Positions 3,694-19,748 of a stretch of DNA of 42,496 nt are shown here, one piece after another. Position 1 is the stretch's first letter; the number at the start of each line of letters is the position of its first letter. This DNA comes from Candidatus Wolfebacteria bacterium (GTDB lineage Bacteria; Patescibacteriota; Minisyncoccia; UBA6257; JAGOQP01), in NCBI GenBank assembly GCA_027350645.1, contig DAIEKJ010000001.1, positions 1 to 42,496 on the forward strand. Reading direction: 5' to 3'. A program made the position numbers and the translations under genes. The notes below the pieces were generated by a model. It worked only from the letters and a program-made list of their open reading frames with translations, made no database searches and was not told where the DNA came from.

Positions 3694-4698
3694 TCATATC
3701 GCTCCATCGCGCGACAATCGTTGCGTCAACATATACGCATCAGCAAAATGCGCATATCCGCGCCACGACGCATACCCGCCATCCGCATGCATCGATACCG
3801 CCGCGGCGCTTTCTTCAAAAGCGCGCACTCGCTTTTGCCTCTTTAAAAATCTCCTCACCGTTGTCGTGCGCAACAACCGCCTCCCATCACGCACGACATA
3901 TCCCAAAAAATCAATGCCATGCGCACACGGGAAAATTTCTGCTTTTTTTGGATGCAACTGCAATCGCAATCGCTCACTGAGAAAAATCCCTATGCGTTCC
4001 TTATCTTCCCGCAAATGTTTTTTGTCATTTCCCAAAATCAAAAAATCGTCCATGTACCGGATATAATATCGTTCGTGCAATACGCGCTTTACGAAATAAT
4101 CAAGTTCATTGAGATATATGTTTGCAAATAATTGGCTCGTCAGATTTCCGATGGGAATGCCCGGCGCATTGCTGGCAATAATCACATCGCACAGCCACAA
4201 AACATTTTCATCGCGGATTTTCTTCCGTATCAATGAACGCAAAACATCATGGTCAATGCTGTCAAAATATTTTGAAATATCACATTTGAGACAATACGAT
4301 GCTCCATCCGCCGCCGTATGTCGCAGTGTATGAATATATTTCTCGAGGCGCCGCACGGCCGCGTGCGTCCCCTTGCCCTTCCGGCACGCATACGAGTCAA
4401 AAATAAAACTTCGCTCAAAAATCGGCTCAATCACATTGCACAGCGCGTGATGCACCACCCGATCGCTGAACGGCGCCGCTTTGATGGTTCGCCTTTTTGC
4501 CTCAACGACGGTAAATTCACGATAACCGCCATGCCGATATGTTTTTTGCCTCAGCTCCCGCTCAAGCGCGAGCAAGTTTTCTTCCAAGCAAAAGCCGAAT
4601 CTCAGAACAGAGGGACGATACCGCTTGCATTTCCGCGCCGCCACATACGCTTGATGCAGATTGGCAAAATCAACGACGCGATCATAGAGATACATCAT
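3694..4698 (-). CDS. DGR-type reverse transcriptase
   Basis: RT motifs: SYACRKGKGTHAA, DISKYFDSIDH, the DGR-typical IGNLTSQ (motif 4), YIRYMDDFLILG (YMDD catalytic box) and GIDFLGY. The ORF is open to a GTG at 4800, but the ATGATG at 4698/4695 (MMYLYDRVVDFANLHQAY...) matches the usual RT N-terminus. Confidence 0.88.
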   Translation of the reverse strand: MMYLYDRVVDFANLHQAYVAARKCKRYRPSVLRFGFCLEENLLALERELRQKTYRHGGYREFTVVEAKRRTIKAAPFSDRVVHHALCNVIEPIFERSFIFDSYACRKGKGTHAAVRRLEKYIHTLRHTAADGASYCLKCDISKYFDSIDHDVLRSLIRKKIRDENVLWLCDVIIASNAPGIPIGNLTSQLFANIYLNELDYFVKRVLHERYYIRYMDDFLILGNDKKHLREDKERIGIFLSERLRLQLHPKKAEIFPCAHGIDFLGYVVRDGRRLLRTTTVRRFLKRQKRVRAFEESAAAVSMHADGGYASWRGYAHFADAYMLTQRLSRDGAI

Positions 4699-4919
4699 AA
4701 CAACAAAAACCCTATGGCCCCGCGCCGGAGCTCTTAAAAAGAACAACGGCGCGAGGGAACGGGTTGTATTCCCTCTTTTATTTCGCTTACCGATACGCAC
4801 GTAACGGATATCGACGCAAAACTACTCAAGGAGGAGCGTGATCAGTAGGCTTCTTGGCGCAGGATAACGTTTATGAACGCTTTTCTCGGGCCAAGTGAGA
4901 TCATCACCATAGCAAAGTA

Positions 4920-5036
4920 TACCGGGCACAGCGGAACCCCACATTGTTGTTCGTATTACCCGTGTTCCAATTCAAGTTCAGCGCAAATGGTCCATCGTTC
5001 GAACCATTGTTCCAATTGTCGCCGCGAAGAAAGACG
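4920..5036 (-). repeat. DGR template repeat (TR)
   Basis: Collinear with 5515-5631 at a constant offset of 595. The coding-sense TR translates as VFLRGDNWNNGSNDGPFALNLNWNTGNTNNNVGFRCAR, with 11 AAY codons. It lacks the stop codon that ends the VR copy. It sits between avd and the RT. Confidence 0.9.
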
Positions 5037-5122
5037 CTGTGCGCGATCGCACCCCCGCCACGCCACCAAAAGCGTGGCAATCAAAAACGCGACACAAATG
5101 TTCTCGTCCTTGGTTGCCACAC

Positions 5123-5458
5123 CTATGAAAATCGCTTCGTCCATCCCGCATACAGTTTTCCAATTTCATTCAGTTTTTCCGCCGCAACGGCATAGTGCTT
5201 GATCCCCAAAAATTTCAGATCTTTTGCCAGCCGGATCAACATCCGCAGAAGATCTATCCGCACGGCCATTTTTTGCAAAACCAAACGCTTATCCGCGGCG
5301 GCATTGGCAATACTGATTTCTTTTATCAGTTCCACCAATTCATTTTCTATCTGCTGTCCCAAAACAAACCGCTGTTTTTGGGGAAATGAATTAATGATCG
5401 GGAAAAACCAGAGTGTGAAGTCGTACGTTTTTTGATACAGAATAAAATCGTCAAGCAT
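5123..5458 (-). CDS. avd: DGR accessory variability determinant (Avd-like four-helix-bundle protein)
   Basis: 111-aa basic helical protein. The YQKTYDFTLWFFPIINSFPQKQRFVLGQQI... pattern is typical of the Avd / 23S-rRNA-IVS four-helix-bundle family. Position between target and TR matches classical DGRs. Confidence 0.8.
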   Translation of the reverse strand: MLDDFILYQKTYDFTLWFFPIINSFPQKQRFVLGQQIENELVELIKEISIANAAADKRLVLQKMAVRIDLLRMLIRLAKDLKFLGIKHYAVAAEKLNEIGKLYAGWTKRFS

Positions 5459-5513
5459 ATTTTATTGCTATAAAAATCAAACAGAAGATACAAGATTACA
5501 GATTGCTACGAGC

Positions 5514-7064
5514 CTACCGGGCACAGCGGAACCCCACAAGGCTGCTCGTATCACCCGTGCCCCAACCCAAGCTCAGCGCAAAGGGCCCATCGAGCGAACC
5601 ATAGCTCCAATTGCCGCCGCGAAGAAAGACGGTTGTGTTCTGATTTGCTCCGGTACCATACGTATACACCTGACCCATGCCTTGAGAGGTGTTCCAGGAA
5701 GAATTGGGAGGAGCGAAGCTGACCTGAGGCACATCGGACGACCAGGAAGAAATATAGGGTGCGGTGGTATTGCCGTATTGGCACCATTCCCATCCGGCAT
5801 TCGCATTGGAACAGGAAGGAAGGGCCATAGCGGTGGTTAGGTCGCCGACGTTATTGATGCTCCTGGCAACGTGTTCCCAGACATTTCCCGAAAGATCCCA
5901 GATGACTTGTCCGTTGGAGAGAACAAGAGTGCGCCGTTCGTCGTTGGGATTGGTGACGGTTTTGTTTGTTTCTCCCGCATAGCCGTTGGCATCGTTGGCA
6001 TCGGCGGGATACTCGCTGGCATTGTTGGCGTTGCCTAGGTACATGCCCCCTGATCCGACCGATCCCCCCGTCCAGTTGGATGGTTGGTTGGCGGCATTGG
6101 TGGCGATGGTCATATATTCGTCGTTAGTGATCAGGTGCGCACCGATAGATTGGCAGTAGGAAACGGCGGTGGTATGGGAAATATCCACAATCTGGATACC
6201 ACCAGGAAGGGAGGAGATTTGGCGGTTGTTTGTGGGAGTACAGTTGGTTGCACCATTATTGTATCCATTGCCATCGGTTGGGGTATTGATAACCGCGCCG
6301 GTGGCATCGGAACAAGTTGCCGCATATTTCATCACCCAGAAGTCAGAGGTGCCAAAGGTGGGATTACCCGGAACCCTGATCCAGCCGGAAGGAAAGACCC
6401 CTTGTCCCAGAGCAAGGTTGGAACCCATTTCAAGAGCTCCTGATATAGTTCCGCCATCAGAGGAAGCCAGAGAGGCATATTTAGTTGATTCCATGGTAGC
6501 GGTCAGTTTGAAAGAACCTCCGGTGATGTAGGTATAGTACAGATTAGAGGAAGAGGCATTGACGGGGTCTATGGGAAGAGAGGAGAGAGAAACAACCCCA
6601 TTGGATTGGAAGTTAACGGGGATCCAGCCAGTTCCATTGGTATTTTGGAGAGTGGTGGTAGAAACACAGTTATAGTTCCAGCCAGACGGAAGAGAAGGAA
6701 GACCCCAGGAACCACAGGTGGAAGAAGAGTCAGGGAGGGAGGTATAGACAGTAGAAGAAGCGCCAAAAGAGACGGTTTGATCTAAGGCGTAGACGGTATT
6801 GAGGGCTTGGTTGAGAGCAGAAAGATCTTGTTGTCGTTTACTGTCTCGGGCTTGGGCTAAGAGTTGAGCGGGGTTGAGGGTAAGAACGACCGCAGCAACT
6901 AATACGGCCAGAATGCCAATAACGATGAGGAGTTCAATGAGCGTAAAACTCTCTTCGAGAGCCACACTCCTGGGGAAGGCGGAGGAGTTGTCCGGTGCGA
7001 ATAATGCGAACTTTGCGCGAAAGATGCGAATAAAAGGAAATGCCTTTTTGTTTTTTCGAATCAT
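5514..7064 (-). CDS. DGR target protein: type IV pilin-like N-terminus fused to an FGE-sulfatase / C-type-lectin-fold variable domain
   Basis: Prepilin-type FTLIELLIVIGILAVLVAAVVL segment, followed by a pilin-like globular part (YYTYITGGSFKLTATMES). C-terminal GNVWEHV ... RGGNW ... GFRCAR signature of the FGE/CLec fold, which contains the VR. The start codon is uncertain (ATG at 7064 or GTG at 6965). Confidence 0.85.
   Translation of the reverse strand: MIRKNKKAFPFIRIFRAKFALFAPDNSSAFPRSVALEESFTLIELLIVIGILAVLVAAVVLTLNPAQLLAQARDSKRQQDLSALNQALNTVYALDQTVSFGASSTVYTSLPDSSSTCGSWGLPSLPSGWNYNCVSTTTLQNTNGTGWIPVNFQSNGVVSLSSLPIDPVNASSSNLYYTYITGGSFKLTATMESTKYASLASSDGGTISGALEMGSNLALGQGVFPSGWIRVPGNPTFGTSDFWVMKYAATCSDATGAVINTPTDGNGYNNGATNCTPTNNRQISSLPGGIQIVDISHTTAVSYCQSIGAHLITNDEYMTIATNAANQPSNWTGGSVGSGGMYLGNANNASEYPADANDANGYAGETNKTVTNPNDERRTLVLSNGQVIWDLSGNVWEHVARSINNVGDLTTAMALPSCSNANAGWEWCQYGNTTAPYISSWSSDVPQVSFAPPNSSWNTSQGMGQVYTYGTGANQNTTVFLRGGNWSYGSLDGPFALSLGWGTGDTSSLVGFRCAR
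5515..5631 (-). repeat. DGR variable repeat (VR) at the 3' end of the target gene
   Basis: 117 nt matching the TR, with 17 substitutions by hand alignment, all at TR adenines. Encodes VFLRGGNWSYGSLDGPFALSLGWGTGDTSSLVGFRCAR followed by the TAG stop. The last 27 nt (GC-rich GTGGGGTTCCGCTGTGCCCGG) are invariant, as expected for an IMH-like end. Confidence 0.9.
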
Positions 7065-7241: not shown

Positions 7242-7778
7242 TTACCATATCCCCCATGCCTCCTCTATCTCATCGGCAATTTCCTGCGGGAGCGGAGCGC
7301 CGGGTTTGGTGACTCCCGGATAGCGCCAGGCCGAAATAATTTTCACTCTTCGCTCTCCGGTCAGTGCGCGCCGCATTGACGCAATCCACGTCCGCGCTTT
7401 GTCATCTTTTTTTCCATCTTCTTTTTCTCCGTTGCGAGCCGTTTGTTGTTTCCCTCCCGCCATCTCTTCTGTGTTGTCGCTCGTCGGTTGTCGGTTGCCT
7501 GCCCCGTTATCGCGAAGCGATTTTGCGGGGTCGGTTATCTTATACATCACCCATATTTCCTGACCCCAGGATCGTTTTCCTTCCTTGGTTTTATACGACG
7601 CGGGTTGAAGCGCGGCGACCGTTCCGGGAGCGATTCCCTCCTCGATACGCAGAGGGCTATGCAAAACCCGCCGCACCCGCGCCGGAGACAATCCATAAAA
7701 ACGCATCTTTGCCTGCGCGTGCGCGGTCCACGCATAGGCGCTCCCCGCGGGCACTGCCGATCTAAAATTTCCTGGCAT
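7242..7778 (-). CDS. Hypothetical protein, DUF4258-like ends with a low-complexity charged insert
   Basis: The ORF is open to 8036, but that extension overlaps the divergent glycosyltransferase. The ATG at 7778 leaves a 51-nt AT-rich divergent promoter region. AHAQAKMRFYGLSPARVRRVLHSP ... EIWVMYKI ... VKIISAWRY resembles the DUF4258 pattern. The middle is Gly/Lys/Glu/Asp-rich. Confidence 0.4.
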   Translation of the reverse strand: MPGNFRSAVPAGSAYAWTAHAQAKMRFYGLSPARVRRVLHSPLRIEEGIAPGTVAALQPASYKTKEGKRSWGQEIWVMYKITDPAKSLRDNGAGNRQPTSDNTEEMAGGKQQTARNGEKEDGKKDDKARTWIASMRRALTGERRVKIISAWRYPGVTKPGAPLPQEIADEIEEAWGIW

Positions 7779-7829
7779 GGTATTTTTATAGTATACTCTA
7801 TCGCAAACGTAATACCTATCCACCGCCGT

Positions 7830-9764
7830 ATGAATTATTTTTCGCGCATTACCGACCAAACCCACGAGCTTGCCCGGCGCGTCTCCATCCTGCTGTTGGG
7901 CATTATTATTCTTGCAAGCGCGGCCCTTATGGTCAGAAGCGCGTGGAGCGATTCGGCTATTATGGACGAACTGGCGCATATCCCCGCCGGTTATGGCTAC
8001 GTCAGCCAGCTGGATTACCGCCTCAATCCAGAGCATCCCCCGCTCATCAAGGCGCTTTCAGCCCTCCCGCTGTTGTTTGCCAATGTATCCTTCCCCACCG
8101 ACACATCCGCTTGGCAAACCGCGGTGAATGGCCAGTGGGACATGGGCGGCGCCTTTCTGTACGGCGTTAATGATCACCGCGCGCAAACGATCATCTTTAT
8201 CGCGCGCCTCTTCCCCATCCTCATCACGCTGTGCCTTATCGTTTTTGTGTATTGGTGGAGCAGAAAACTGGTGGGACCCCTTTGGGCGCTTCTGCCGACA
8301 TTTTTTATCGCGCTCTCTCCCAACATCCTGGCGCACGGCCATTATGTGACCACCGACGTCGGCGCCGCACTCGGTTTTTTGGTAAGCTTGTACGTTCTTG
8401 ATGCGTTCTGGGCATCGCCGTCAAAAAAAACTCTCCTGGTCGCCGGTATTTTTTTCGGCCTGGCGCAACTAACGAAATTTTCACTCGTCCTCATGGTTCC
8501 CATCGCCGTTCTTCTGGCGATCATCCACTGGTTTGCCGCCACGCGCGCAAACCGCTTAAAACTTTCAGACACGTTGTCATGGAAACTGGCGTGGAAATAT
8601 CTATACTCGCTGGCGCTTATTTTTGCCATCGGCTACGCCGTGGTCTGGGGAGCGTACCTGCTCTTTACCGCGCACTATCCCATCCAGCGGCAAGCAAGCG
8701 ACACCACGTTCCTCCTTGGGTCGTTTTCGGGAAGCTCGGACCCGTCTCTGCTGTCTACGTGCGTCATGCATCCGTCGATGCGTTGTCTGGCTAATGTTGA
8801 TATTATCATGGCGCGCATTCCGGTTGTCCGCGCCCTTGGACAATACCTGCTGGGCGTGCTGATGGTTATCCAGCGTTCCGACGGAGGCAACACCGCCTAC
8901 TTCCTGGGTAATGTCAGTGGCGGTGGCTGGTGGTATTATTTCCCGGTCGTCTTTGTTCTAAAAGAAACAATCCCAGGACTCCTCTATCTCCTTATCGGCG
9001 GATGGGCGGCAGTGCGGCGCGCGATAAAAAAATCCGTCACGCCGCGCATGGAACGCCTCTGGGGGTATGTGGCCGTCGCGTTTCCGGAAGTGTCAATGCT
9101 GACCGTTATTGTGGTCTATTGGGCCTACAGCATGCACAGCCCGCTCAATATCGGATTCCGACACATCCTGCCAACCATCCCCCTGATGTATATTCTGGCA
9201 ACTATCTCGGTAAAAAAATGGTTCTTCTCTAAAGAACCCGCGCACCAGCCCGAACCGCCATTGCGCGCGGTCGGACGCTTTGTGAAAACCGCCATCCGCG
9301 TATCTCTTAAAGGCGCCACCATCACGCTCCTTGTCGTCTGGGGATGTTTTGAAACGGCGCTGGCATCTCCGTATTTTCTTTCGTACTTCAACGAGCTGGG
9401 CGGCGGCGTCTGGGGAGGATACCACATTGTCACCGACTCCAACTACGACTGGGGACAAGACCTCTATCGCCTCAACACCTACGTCCAGCAGAACCACATC
9501 TCCAAAATCGCCGTTGATTATTTCGGCGGCGGCAATCCGCAATACACGCTGGAAAACGACGTAGCCGTACCCTGGAATTCGGCGATGGGGAACCCCGCTG
9601 ACCACGGCATCAACTGGCTGGCCATATCGATCAACACCATCGAGTCGGCAAAGTCGCATGCGCTTTTTACCCGCACCAGCGCCGATGAATACCCATGGCT
9701 TTCCGACTGGGATCACCCGTACGCGCGCGCCGGAACGTCTATCTTTATTTACCGCCTCCGATAA
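7830..9764 (+). CDS. GT-C fold membrane glycosyltransferase (PMT/ArnT-like, GT39/GT83-type)
   Basis: Multi-pass membrane protein. The first loop carries AIMDELAHIPAGYGY...NPEHPPLIKAL, typical of dolichyl/undecaprenyl-phosphate-sugar dependent transferases. Start trimmed from 7443 to the ATG at 7830 (MNYFSRI...). Confidence 0.65.
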   Translation: MNYFSRITDQTHELARRVSILLLGIIILASAALMVRSAWSDSAIMDELAHIPAGYGYVSQLDYRLNPEHPPLIKALSALPLLFANVSFPTDTSAWQTAVNGQWDMGGAFLYGVNDHRAQTIIFIARLFPILITLCLIVFVYWWSRKLVGPLWALLPTFFIALSPNILAHGHYVTTDVGAALGFLVSLYVLDAFWASPSKKTLLVAGIFFGLAQLTKFSLVLMVPIAVLLAIIHWFAATRANRLKLSDTLSWKLAWKYLYSLALIFAIGYAVVWGAYLLFTAHYPIQRQASDTTFLLGSFSGSSDPSLLSTCVMHPSMRCLANVDIIMARIPVVRALGQYLLGVLMVIQRSDGGNTAYFLGNVSGGGWWYYFPVVFVLKETIPGLLYLLIGGWAAVRRAIKKSVTPRMERLWGYVAVAFPEVSMLTVIVVYWAYSMHSPLNIGFRHILPTIPLMYILATISVKKWFFSKEPAHQPEPPLRAVGRFVKTAIRVSLKGATITLLVVWGCFETALASPYFLSYFNELGGGVWGGYHIVTDSNYDWGQDLYRLNTYVQQNHISKIAVDYFGGGNPQYTLENDVAVPWNSAMGNPADHGINWLAISINTIESAKSHALFTRTSADEYPWLSDWDHPYARAGTSIFIYRLR

Positions 9765-18852: not shown

Positions 18853-19275
18853 TTATTCTTTGGCGGTTATTTTTCCACCCGCCTTTTCAATGAGGACTTT
18901 GGCGCCGGCCGTGCACGGGATGGCAATAATTGTTTTTGCTCCCGTTAACGGTTTTCCAGCGACAATTTTTGGAAGTTCCTTACTGCGAATAACGCCAGCG
19001 GCAACCAACGCCGCATGATCAATCCGTTCGGCTGTTACCGCGTTGAGACGATCGGTTTTTATAACTGAATAAGCGGCAGTAACCGTCTTGTTGGCATATC
19101 CGCGAAGTTTAGGCGTACGGATCAAAACATCGCGCAATCCCGGACGTATATTGTGTCCGGCCCGCGCCTTCTGGCCTTTCTGCCCGCGGCCGGAATACGT
19201 TCCCCGCTTGCCGCCGCGGCCTATTCTTTTTTCTGCCCGCCGTGCATGCGCGGGACGAAGCGTATGAATCTGCAT
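18853..19275 (-). CDS. rplO: 50S ribosomal protein uL15
   Basis: RIGRGGKRGTYSGRGQKGQKAR N-terminus. spc-operon position before secY. Confidence 0.9.
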   Translation of the reverse strand: MQIHTLRPAHARRAEKRIGRGGKRGTYSGRGQKGQKARAGHNIRPGLRDVLIRTPKLRGYANKTVTAAYSVIKTDRLNAVTAERIDHAALVAAGVIRSKELPKIVAGKPLTGAKTIIAIPCTAGAKVLIEKAGGKITAKE

Positions 19276-19280
19276 AGATC

Positions 19281-19748
19281 TTACAACAACTGGCGCAACG
19301 CTTCCGCCGCCGCCAGCGCGTTTGTTAATTTGTTTTTTGTGCGACCCAATGATTTCGCGGTTGCGTCGGTAATGCCCGCCATGGACAACACCGTGCGCAC
19401 CGATCCTCCCGCTTTCAATCCCGATCCTTTCTGCGCCGGTTTGATAATAACCTTGGCCGCGCTGAACTTTGCCCCCACTTCGTGCGCGATCGTCGTCCCC
19501 TTTAGGGGAACGCGGAAAAGGTGCTTTTTAGCGTCATTGCGGGCCTTGTCCATTGCCTGCGCGACATCCTTTCCCTTTGCAATACCCACTCCCACCTTCC
19601 CCTTCTCGTCGCCGATAATCAGCGTGCAGCGGAACGAAAAACGCTTGCCTCCCGCCATGACGCGGGCGACGCGGCGCAAATCAATGGTGCGCTCTTTGTA
19701 TTCGCTCTTGGGCTGCATCGGCCGTTCTCTTCGCTTTTGATTCATCAT
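19281..19748 (-). CDS. rpsE: 30S ribosomal protein uS5
   Basis: RVARVMAGGKRFSFRCTLIIGDEKGKVGVGIAKGKDV and the C-terminal GITD...LG motif. Position after rplR. Confidence 0.9.
   Translation of the reverse strand: MMNQKRRERPMQPKSEYKERTIDLRRVARVMAGGKRFSFRCTLIIGDEKGKVGVGIAKGKDVAQAMDKARNDAKKHLFRVPLKGTTIAHEVGAKFSAAKVIIKPAQKGSGLKAGGSVRTVLSMAGITDATAKSLGRTKNKLTNALAAAEALRQLL

Follow-up and report, generated by a model that had tools for sequence, protein, structure and literature searches.

The DGR variable proteins TaqVP of Thermus aquaticus (5vf4), TvpA of Treponema denticola (2y3c), and Mtd of a Bordetella phage (1yu0-4) share with the protein studied here a CLec domain with a C-terminal VR. The adenine-directed variation via AAY codons and the Avd and RT accessory genes are also common to these systems. 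However, TaqVP and TvpA are single-domain proteins or lipoproteins, and Mtd forms the trimeric tip of a phage tail fibre. All three lack a type IV pilin carrier, and their identity to this protein is only 11-17%. FGE (human SUMF1, 1y1e; bacterial 2q17 and 5nxl) has the same fold subtype and the same GFRCAR C-terminal motif, but its catalytic Cys pair is missing here. The equivalent segment is the VR, and we read this protein as a binding module.

Modular pilins follow a 'carrier plus effector' design (PMC8179133), and Dataset S1 of that paper includes the architecture IPR012902-IPR005532 (8 proteins). In S. sanguinis, PilC (pilin and ConA-like lectin) and PilB (pilin and vWA) combine a class III pilin module with a bulky C-terminal adhesin, as does the protein described here (PMC8179133, PMC9934059). 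The Laminin_G_3 domain on the closest relatives of our pilin module belongs to the same superfamily as the module of S. sanguinis PilC. The S. sanguinis modules are fixed in sequence, whereas the CLec here has a face rewritten by a retroelement and a presumed place in the pilus. The Bacteroides type V tip pilins BfrT, BthT, and BunT carry a DGR-diversified CLec head on a pilus subunit, and adaptable adhesion has been proposed for them (bioRxiv 10.1101/2024.11.15.621889). That system differs in its type V pili, lipoprotein precursors, strand exchange, outer membrane, phylum, and non-homologous carrier. PilX1 and PilX2 of Saccharibacteria TM7x are CPR minor pilins that have C-terminal lectin-like domains and have been tied experimentally to host binding (PMC11623550). 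However, their extra domains have a beta-jelly-roll and a beta-propeller fold instead of CLec, and they are found without a DGR.

In this study, we analysed a stretch of 42,496 nucleotides (the window). An ORF at 5514..7064 on the minus strand encodes a protein of 516 aa with an ATG start. It is the target of a DGR cassette with the order target, Avd, TR, and RT, all on one strand. We conclude that the protein is quite probably a modular type IV pilin whose CLec head is rewritten by the DGR, likely a pilus-displayed, adaptable adhesin of a tiny and probably host-dependent CPR bacterium. The features are as follows.

6948..7064, minus strand: leader region, codons 1-39 (MIRKNKKAFPFIRIFRAKFALFAPDNSSAFPRSVALEES), with a predicted prepilin-peptidase cut after Ser39
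6783..6947, minus strand: mature N-terminus and alpha-1 helix, residues 40-94, with F+1, E+5, hydrophobic residues 45-61, and a helix break at Pro65
6387..6782, minus strand: globular head of the pilin module, residues 95-226, with invariant Cys117 and Cys133, from AlphaFold and end-to-end homology to CPR pilins
5632..6386, minus strand: invariant scaffold of the FGE-type CLec, residues 227-477, from Pfam PF03781 and Foldseek
5515..5631, minus strand: VR, codons 478-516 and the first two bases of the stop codon (5514-5516), a 117 nt match to the TR
5123..5458, minus strand: Avd accessory protein, 111 aa (Pfam bAvd, E 8e-25; NCBIfam NF033474 DivGenRetAVD, 94.8 bits against a cut-off of 80)
4920..5036, minus strand: TR with 29 adenines and 11 AAY codons, the 117 nt partner of the VR
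3694..4800, minus strand: DGR RT, longest ORF 368 aa (RVT_1, E 1e-21), with IGNLTSQ at 217 and YMDD at 249

The public gene call for the RT is shorter, at 334 aa (window 3694-4698). The original prediction described a type IV pilin-like N-terminus joined to a DGR-diversified CLec domain, and this architecture is now supported by independent lines of evidence. None of the three results named there as refuting has so far emerged. The motifs it quoted were all confirmed, with FTLIELLIVIGILAVLVAAVVL at residue 40, LYYTYITGGSFKLTATMES at 175, GNVWEHV at 393, RGGNW at 482, and GFRCAR at 511.

The true start codon is uncertain, because no Shine-Dalgarno sequence was seen upstream of the ATG and an in-frame GTG at codon 34 lies behind an AGGAG. 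A start at this GTG is unlikely, since it would have a spacing of just 1 nt from the AGGAG and an acidic leader, MALEES. Counted from the ATG, the leader of 39 aa is unusually long and contains 8 K/R and 3 D/E residues; its AlphaFold pLDDT is ~50. Leaders vary widely in the family, with a median of 15 aa.

The leader is followed by the prepilin-type motif S39/F40-T-L-I-E44 (the slash marks the predicted cut) and then by LLIVIGILAVLVAAVVL, with a hydrophobic stretch of 17 residues. A class III prepilin signature had been claimed for this region. The FTLIE motif and the hydrophobic stretch bore this out, but the residue before F+1 is Ser, where the canonical residue is Gly. Because of this Ser at -1, the N_methyl models fell just below threshold: Pfam N_methyl (PF07963) scored 19.6 bits at residues 40-59 against a cut-off of 21.2, and NCBIfam TIGR02532 scored 16.1 bits against 16.3. 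A Foldseek search with the pilin module alone found nothing significant in the PDB, with a best E value of 3.5 and the minor pilin PilE (4noa) at E 7.6; pilin heads are very divergent. Both results would suit an ordinary Sec signal anchor with a fortuitous likeness to pilins, on a generic membrane-tethered DGR target. Roux et al. also reported that CPR DGR targets are typically without recognisable transmembrane or other domains (PMC8144416). However, F+1, T+2, L+3, and E+5 were essentially invariant in the family (111 of 119 members with a recognisable N-terminus), and the -1 residue was small in 110 of these 111 (S in 46, G in 37, A in 27). A PF07963 match is precomputed for most homologues. 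N_methyl also matched all 19 aligned N-modules at E<0.1, the best at 7.9e-5.

Further comparisons pointed in the same direction. When the N-module profile was searched against the PDB, all 21 matches were type IV pilins or pseudopilins, and the alignments started at mature residue 1 or at most one position away. The best match was Thermus PilA4 (6xxd, E 8e-8). Residues 40-219 were 36-45% identical to CPR pilins over the full length, both stand-alone ones and one fused to a LamG-like domain. For the pilin module of ~185 aa, AlphaFold predicted a 53-residue alpha-1 (helices 42-63 and 65-94) followed by a beta-sheet head of five strands (66-72, 91-95, 138-142, 146-151, and 171-175 in mature numbering), with a pLDDT of 90.2. 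The proposal of a pilin-like N-terminal region was thus borne out by the family motif, the PDB profile matches, the homology to CPR pilins, and the AlphaFold model. A plain Sec anchor is strongly disfavoured and, in our judgement, very improbable.

The C-terminal part had been described as an FGE/CLec domain of about 300 residues. The fold and its motifs were confirmed, but the extent was corrected to residues ~226-516 (291 aa). Pfam FGE-sulfatase (PF03781) matched residues 277-402 with E 2e-7 and 31.3 bits (cut-off 23.3). The AlphaFold model of the full protein had a pLDDT of 90.1 and a pTM of 0.84. A Foldseek search against the PDB, proposed earlier with Mtd and FGE in mind, gave TaqVP (5vf4) as the top match at E 7e-9, then FGEs, then Mtd. 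FGE structures occupied ranks 4-29 with E about 1e-5. Together with the Pfam match and the NCBI label 'SUMF1/EgtB/PvdO family nonheme iron enzyme' on two relatives (P0047 and P0099), these ranks would fit an enzyme of the FGE or SUMF1/EgtB/PvdO family. However, the segment equivalent to the site of the FGE catalytic Cys pair is the VR, which has no Cys between residues 478 and 513 and is hypervariable in the family as a whole. Among structures, a DGR variable protein gave the best match, and the authors of the TaqVP study judged FGE activity unlikely in such proteins (PMC6328139). We rejected the FGE reading because the catalytic Cys is absent from the VR segment, and an enzymatic C-terminal domain of any of these kinds seems extremely improbable.

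Residues ~476-514 aligned to TaqVP 343-381, inside the TaqVP VR (341-381). In the crystal structure, the TaqVP VR is solvent-exposed (PMC6328139). Judged from this alignment, the variable residues of our protein would likewise form an exposed face.

The VR and TR were 85% identical over 117 nt. All 17 mismatches fell at TR adenines, with 11 changed to G, 3 to C, and 3 to T. The 11 variable residues counted in the original prediction correspond to the 11 AAY (Asn) codons of the TR, at 485, 487, 488, 491, 498, 500, 502, 505, 507, 508, and 509. The VR product differed from the TR translation in 12 residues across codons 478-516, 11 of them through TR-adenine changes inside the repeat; residue 478 differed through a G-to-C at the edge of the repeat. 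At its 3' end, the repeat has a GC-rich stretch of 24 nt (TGTGGGGTTCCGCTGTGCCCGGTA) that does not differ between VR and TR. The window contained no other TR copy, second VR, or second target.

Two samples gave assemblies in which the 516-aa protein, VR included, is identical, so a direct sign of ongoing diversification is absent. No stable hairpin was found downstream of the VR (z -0.34), and roughly half of the family members were without a DGR inside the available flank. These observations are consistent with a fossil cassette, in which a once active DGR has fallen silent and the protein has become a lectin pilin of fixed specificity. On the other side, RT, Avd, and TR are intact with their catalytic motifs, and the TR retains 11 AAY codons. 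The adenine-only mismatches leave no background drift inside the 117-nt repeat, and assemblies give a consensus sequence only. We therefore regard an inactive cassette as unlikely, though with an appreciable chance, and keep to the reading of a pilin with a head that is probably still being rewritten.

We next consider the family of pilin+CLec proteins. In a genome-contig scan with the full-length alignment, the generic FTLIELL pattern dominated, and the matches listed were mostly ordinary pilins. The scan was unfit for family statistics but yielded the stand-alone pilin homologues L006-L009. The family scan was repeated on metagenome contigs with a CLec-only alignment, and 336 related loci were found in one metagenome scan. 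Overall, the pilin+CLec architecture had at least several hundred relatives or 90%-identity clusters. The pilin motif was present in 53 of the 66 metagenome loci with an intact N-terminus. Avd and/or RT were present in 25 of the 48 loci with at least 1.5 kb of downstream sequence. About 40 loci had a TR of ~111-137 nt (about 117 nt in most), with mismatches overwhelmingly at adenines, and the high-entropy columns of the family coincided with the AAY codons of our TR. Among close relatives, the VR diverged faster than the scaffold. One relative (P0001) was 93% identical to our protein in the scaffold and 69% in the VR; compared with another locus (L047), the TR was 91% and the VR 81% identical.

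The pilin module had relatives of its own, with homologues in 935 representative clusters at E<=1e-30. The nearest, at up to 81% identity, were pilin::Laminin_G_3 fusions, and others carried PPC or Ig-like modules. Since the closest relatives are lectin fusions, the pilin module appears to be a general carrier. Its stand-alone CPR relatives sit in loci with a PilB-type ATPase, identified by Pfam in one locus and by a Walker-motif match in the others. In the Pfam case, the module was 42% identical over residues 40-217 (E 1e-36) to a pilin (L052:625-1236) that is followed directly by a T2SSE PilB (E 5e-120), with a T2SSF PilC nearby. Tandem Saccharibacteria pilins whose neighbour is an ATPase with a Walker A motif of PilB/GspE type were 44% identical to the module. 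Judged by their position, these pilins beside a PilB-type ATPase are presumably major pilins. The carrier has relatives among both these pilins and lectin-carrying modular pilins, and the minor or tip pilin of the original prediction is still tentative.

The target gene itself is an orphan. No pilB, pilC, pilD, pilM, or other pilin gene was found in the window or at contig positions 13.8-70.2 kb of 79.4 kb, a region that held only housekeeping genes and one T4SS coupling-protein-like gene. In CPR at large, type IV pili and PilD are widespread (PMC6744442). Most family genes also lie outside pilus gene clusters. Archaeal sugar-binding proteins with pilin-type (class III) signals are anchored to the surface by such signals. 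The signal here might similarly serve export or surface anchoring only, so that the protein would be a receptor held by alpha-1 or would belong to a short pseudopilus-like assembly, not to an extended pilus. The bulky head is in line with this, and the pTM of the full model suggests rigid packing of the modules, maybe with a poor fit in a filament. Against it, the N-module is a complete pilin module homologous to pilins beside pilB. Within the minor-pilin operon of a pilus cluster lies a relative that shares the CLec (57% identity) but has another pilin N-terminus, G/QSITEV. Moreover, S. sanguinis pili incorporate modular pilins with heads of 30-50 kDa (PMC8179133, PMC9934059). A surface receptor outside extended pili is accordingly rather unlikely, and we favour a subunit displayed on the pilus.

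For such a pilus subunit, we propose the following mechanism. A prepilin peptidase would remove the class III signal peptide by cutting after Ser39. The mature FTLIE end and the hydrophobic alpha-1 would anchor the protein in the membrane and later contribute to the filament core, with the ~185-aa pilin module carrying the ~290-aa FGE-type CLec module. RT and Avd would copy TR RNA to cDNA with misincorporation opposite adenines, and this cDNA would replace the VR. Such replacement by adenine-mutagenised cDNA would keep the scaffold constant while ~11 Asn-templated positions and a few others are resampled. The AAY codons alone could give ~15^11, or roughly 10^13, variants. Display on a type IV pilus is most likely; given the bulky head, the protein would probably be scarce there or sit at the tip. 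The protein would then serve as an adaptable adhesin for ligands on host cells or other surfaces. We infer pilus incorporation, filament position, and current DGR activity, as well as processing by the peptidase, an exposed variable face, and the ligand.

CPR may reprogram type IV pilus adhesion at two levels, an idea that we put forward tentatively and at somewhat below even confidence. At the first level, recombination would swap LamG lectin, PPC, Ig-like, and CLec heads on a common pilin carrier. Such head swapping is suggested by a sharp 93%-identity block common to a different DGR cassette. At the second level, the resident DGR would rewrite the binding face of the CLec heads.

As building blocks, DGR variable proteins and modular type IV pilins are each known, and their combination appears to be new. 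No description of a pilin with a DGR-diversified CLec was found in the literature searched; a key paper on CPR DGRs, Paul et al. 2017 (Nat Microbiol), lay outside this search and may mention pilin targets. Other DGR surveys mention pilins in passing or not at all. DGRs are strikingly enriched in CPR bacteria, and their targets and purpose there have been a long-standing question, which now becomes testable. The locus and its family offer a concrete answer for a sizeable subset of CPR DGRs, namely a diversified CLec head on a pilin module. Few surface machines are conserved in CPR, and type IV pili belong to them. Cultivated Saccharibacteria bind their hosts through pili with lectin-like minor pilins (PMC11623550). 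For this reason, the finding connects targeted hypermutation with the most likely organelle of host recognition. It also carries the concept of a pilus adhesin diversified by a DGR, previously shown for the type V pili of Bacteroides alone, over to an unrelated pilus system, and adds a self-reprogramming member to the class of modular pilins. If these proteins are indeed located on pili, episymbionts would have in DGR-programmed pilus adhesins a major host-recognition device that has so far gone undescribed. This would account for the DGR enrichment in CPR, where the targets reportedly have no recognisable domains. The compact pilin-CLec-DGR cassette is also a natural display-and-diversify unit.

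An Rfam scan of the window returned one tRNA only. The S5 gene adjoins L15 with no L30 between them, and CPR bacteria are not known to have L30. The earlier supposition of a CPR bacterium is backed by this junction and by the source names of the homologues, which were Paceibacterota, Minisyncoccia, and Patescibacteria.

The open reading frame at 5514..7064 (-) was genuine according to ORF analysis of the window and encodes a 516-aa product. The following elements lie directly downstream of it on the same strand:

5123-5458, (-): Avd accessory protein of 111 aa (Pfam bAvd, E 8e-25; NCBIfam DivGenRetAVD, 94.8 bits, cut-off 80)
4920-5036, (-): 117-nt repeat, found by its match to the 3' end of the ORF
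3694-4800, (-): reverse transcriptase (RVT_1, E 1e-21; motifs IGNLTSQ and YMDD)

The downstream repeat was 85% identical to the final 117 nt of the ORF (5515-5631), and 17/17 mismatches fell at adenines of the downstream copy. Since all mismatches are on these adenines, the downstream copy is the template repeat (TR) and the 3' end of the ORF is the variable region (VR). The TR contains 11 in-frame AAY codons, at residues 485, 487, 488, 491, 498, 500, 502, 505, 507, 508, and 509, which are the 11 variable residues of the original prediction. A search of the window revealed no second VR. The elements at 3694-7064 are a canonical, complete diversity-generating retroelement (DGR).

The VR is carried on a C-type-lectin-fold (CLec) head, residues ~227-516, which matched Pfam FGE-sulfatase above threshold. 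In a Foldseek search of the PDB with the full model, the top match was TaqVP, the DGR variable protein of Thermus aquaticus (E 7e-9), followed by formylglycine-generating enzymes (FGE), phage Mtd, and, weakly, TvpA. In the CLec profile, residues ~476-514 aligned to TaqVP 343-381, inside the TaqVP VR (341-381), a region exposed to solvent in the TaqVP crystal (PMC6328139). By homology, the variable face is probably exposed in this protein as well. The catalytic Cys pair of FGE is absent: there is no Cys at residues 478-513, and this segment is hypervariable. The automated label "SUMF1/EgtB/PvdO enzyme" is therefore a label of fold and not of function.

We then consider the N-terminus, ...ALEES39/F40TLIE44LLIVIGILAVLVAAVVL (slash, predicted cleavage site), for which a pilin-like identity had been predicted; every sequence motif quoted in that prediction was present in the protein. 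The class III signature comprises a small residue at -1, a hydrophobic residue at +1, Glu at +5, and a hydrophobic stretch. The curated models PF07963 (19.6 bits, cut-off 21.2) and TIGR02532 (16.1, cut-off 16.3) were narrowly missed because the -1 residue is Ser instead of Gly. A recognisable N-terminus was found in 111/119 aligned homologues, among which F+1, T+2, L+3, and E+5 were essentially invariant and the -1 residue was Ser (46), Gly (37), or Ala (27); most homologues have a precomputed PF07963 match. Despite the sub-threshold models, this family pattern settles the predicted class III signal. A profile of residues 40-226 against all PDB sequences gave 21 matches, 21/21 of them type IV pilins or type II secretion pseudopilins, with Thermus PilA4 (6xxd, E 8e-8) at the top and every alignment starting no more than one position from the first mature residue.

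The pilin gene has an uncertain start codon. Read from the ATG, the leader is basic and 39 aa long, with no evident ribosome-binding site ahead of it; at codon 34, an in-frame GTG has AGGAG one base upstream and would leave an acidic leader of six residues. Ahead of the true FTLIE, the leader regions of the window (6948-7064, (-)), of the homologous proteins P0001 and P0023, and of a Saccharibacteria locus (L007:10649-11404) hold degenerate copies of a pilin N-terminus (window, MIRKNKKAFPFIRIF; P0001, MRSQKSFTLIITMKK; P0023, MKQTSFFTLIELLIV...SFTLIELLIV). These copies suggest repeated recombination at a conserved 5' pilin sequence, of which they may be a trace.

AlphaFold with the 119-sequence alignment modelled the full protein with a pLDDT of 90.1 and a pTM of 0.84, the latter hinting that the pilin and CLec modules may pack rigidly. 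Two helices were predicted, 42-63 and 65-94, interrupted at Pro65 and followed by beta-strands and the C-terminal domain. Residues 40-226 modelled alone reached a pLDDT of 90.2; with this isolated module, Foldseek against the PDB gave no significant match (best E 3.5; PilE 4noa fifth, E 7.6). The module aligned end to end with CPR pilins. It was 42% identical (E 1e-36) to the product of L052:625-1236, a metagenome gene directly upstream of PilB (T2SSE, E 5e-120) and near PilC (T2SSF). It was 44% identical to two tandem Saccharibacteria pilins (L007) neighboured by an ATPase with a PilB/GspE-type Walker A motif, and 36% identical to a Daviesbacteria pilin whose locus also encodes an ATPase recognised by its motif and perhaps a prepilin peptidase. 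This clear homology indicates that the N-terminal part is probably a whole pilin module, more than a signal peptide.

An exhaustive module-only search of 1.84 billion representative proteins returned 935 clusters at E<=1e-30. Among the relatives of the module (P0121-P0268; also L006:9316-10578 and L005:11538-12806), the best matches (at most 81% identity, 400-440 aa) carry Laminin_G_3, a ConA-like lectin, in their C-terminal half. P0216 instead carries PPC repeats and P0199 an Ig-like domain, and stand-alone pilins also occur among the matches. These varied heads indicate that the module is a widely used carrier of adhesin heads in CPR. S. sanguinis PilB and PilC, the proteins on which the "modular pilin" concept was defined, share this design (PMC8179133).

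A sharp mosaic was observed against an NCBI MAG contig (GCA_021837725.1, JAKBFI010000014.1; L129). Window 6325-6947 (-) was 93% identical in nucleotides to positions 1342-1964 there, a block spanning the first mature codon (F40) to the FWVMKY motif at about residue 247. The flanks differ, and the CLec scaffold, Avd, and RT are 48%, 33%, and 50% identical in amino acids. Two different DGR cassettes thus share one pilin module, pointing to module exchange or gene conversion. A 132-nt patch of the RT gene (4346-4477, (-)) was also 94.7% identical to the RT of this MAG, with ~50% identity elsewhere; this patch could mark a second conversion tract or a segment of RT or RNA under unusual constraint.

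Apart from the DGR locus, the window holds housekeeping genes (a ribosomal protein operon, rpoBC, aminoacyl-tRNA synthetases, SecY, ParAB, and FtsW). The containing contig is ENA ERZ27236874 k141_882314 (79,387 bp; L001). A second sample (ERZ27236897) independently yielded a 516-aa protein identical throughout, also in the VR, reflecting either a stable dominant VR haplotype across samples or closely related samples. Features of the surroundings are as follows:

window 18853-19748, (-): S5 then L15, no L30 gene between, 5-bp spacer
window 7242-7754 (longest ORF to 8036), (-): gene of 170 aa immediately preceding the pilin gene, searched against Pfam and NCBIfam without a match
window 7830-9764, (+): PMT/PMT_2-family (dolichyl-phosphate-mannose-type) membrane glycosyltransferase near the pilin gene
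L001 18800-21181, past the left end of the window, ~9 kb beyond the DGR: T4SS coupling-protein-like gene (DUF87, T4SS-DNA_transf, TraG-D_C)

CPR bacteria are not known to carry L30, and S5-L15 without L30 is a CPR hallmark; the arrangement here is consistent with a CPR origin. On the opposite strand, the longest PMT-family ORF (7443-9764, +) has a 5' extension that overlaps the 170-aa gene; the public 644-aa PMT call (~7830-9764) does not reach that gene. Pilins are often glycosylated, and a functional link between the glycosyltransferase and the pilin is conceivable.

No pilus machinery was found in the window or in contig positions 13.8-70.2 kb. The main alternative, that the protein is displayed on the surface without incorporation into a filament, is in our estimate unlikely. 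From gene context, the strongest sign that CLec heads may ride on pili is a CPR type IV pilus cluster at 1-16000 of L052 (JGI Ga0335072_10000014, 439 kb). Its order is a putative major pilin (beside PilB), PilB, a 1484-aa He_PIG/Ig and PG_binding protein, PilC, a putative minor pilin, a pilin::CLec gene, and further pilin-like gene(s). The CLec relative there is 57% identical over residues 189-516 and has a different, minor-pilin-like N-terminus (G/QSITEV); no DGR lies within 10 kb of the cluster. Type IV pili and PilD occur widely among CPR (PMC6744442), and Saccharibacteria TM7x binds its host through pili that carry lectin-like minor pilins (PMC11623550).

A word-indexed search yielded at least 992 clusters of the family. 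Nearly all of the top 120 had ~90% query coverage and combined PF07963 with PF03781; their named sources were Paceibacterota, Minisyncoccia, or the Patescibacteria group. On JGI metagenome contigs, scanning with the CLec part alone gave 336 related loci, 80 of which were fetched for study. Among these, the pilin motif was present in 53/66 loci with an untruncated N-terminus, and Avd and/or RT in 25/48 loci with at least 1.5 kb downstream. Most DGR-bearing loci have the gene order of the window, and a few have Avd and RT upstream of the target. A TR of ~111-137 nt (mostly ~117 nt) was found in ~40 loci, with mismatches overwhelmingly at adenines. The arrangement of DGR cassette, adenine-specific VR/TR differences, pilin-type N-terminus and carrier, and CLec head with C-terminal VR is conserved across the family. 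For roughly half of the family, including members on 284-kb and 805-kb contigs, no DGR lies within 10 kb; these members may be remote targets or fixed-specificity pilins.

The high-entropy columns of the family alignment are exactly the 11 AAY positions of the window TR, and the residues at these columns (S, N, Y, D, G, A...) can be derived from AAY. In the closest relatives, the VR diverges faster than the scaffold: P0001 is 93% identical to the window protein in the scaffold and 69% in the VR. A metagenome relative (L047) is 91% identical in TR and 81% in VR. That the DGR is a fossil is unlikely; a fossil would be compatible with both pilus incorporation and surface display.

As we propose, the prepilin would be cut after Ser39, and alpha-1 would enter the membrane and later a type IV filament. 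Given its bulk, the head would favour placement at the tip or at sparse sites, an argument already made for modular pilins (PMC8179133). The DGR would resample ~11 positions (~15^11, ~10^13 variants), and selection would keep variants binding a host-cell or surface ligand. The locus works like the CLec-type DGR variable proteins TaqVP, TvpA, and Mtd, and also like the modular type IV pilins PilC/PilB of S. sanguinis and PilX1/PilX2 of TM7x. The nearest conceptual precedent, a DGR acting on a pilus adhesin, is the Bacteroides type V pilus tip pilins, an unrelated pilus system (bioRxiv 10.1101/2024.11.15.621889).

No description of DGR-diversified type IV pilins was found in the searchable literature, whose scope excluded Paul et al. 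2017. Roux et al. reported that CPR DGR targets typically have no recognisable domains. In one DGR survey, a "GspG-type pilin" domain appears with other rare VR-holding domains, a second mentions "putative pilin structures" in passing, and a supplementary table of Raynaud et al. gives the IPR012902-IPR005532 architecture for 8 proteins without comment. Because no prior description was found, but both building blocks are known and passing listings exist, we rate the finding as a fresh combination of known kinds and not as categorically new. Automatic JGI names already pair "formylglycine-generating enzyme" with "PilE" or "PulG".
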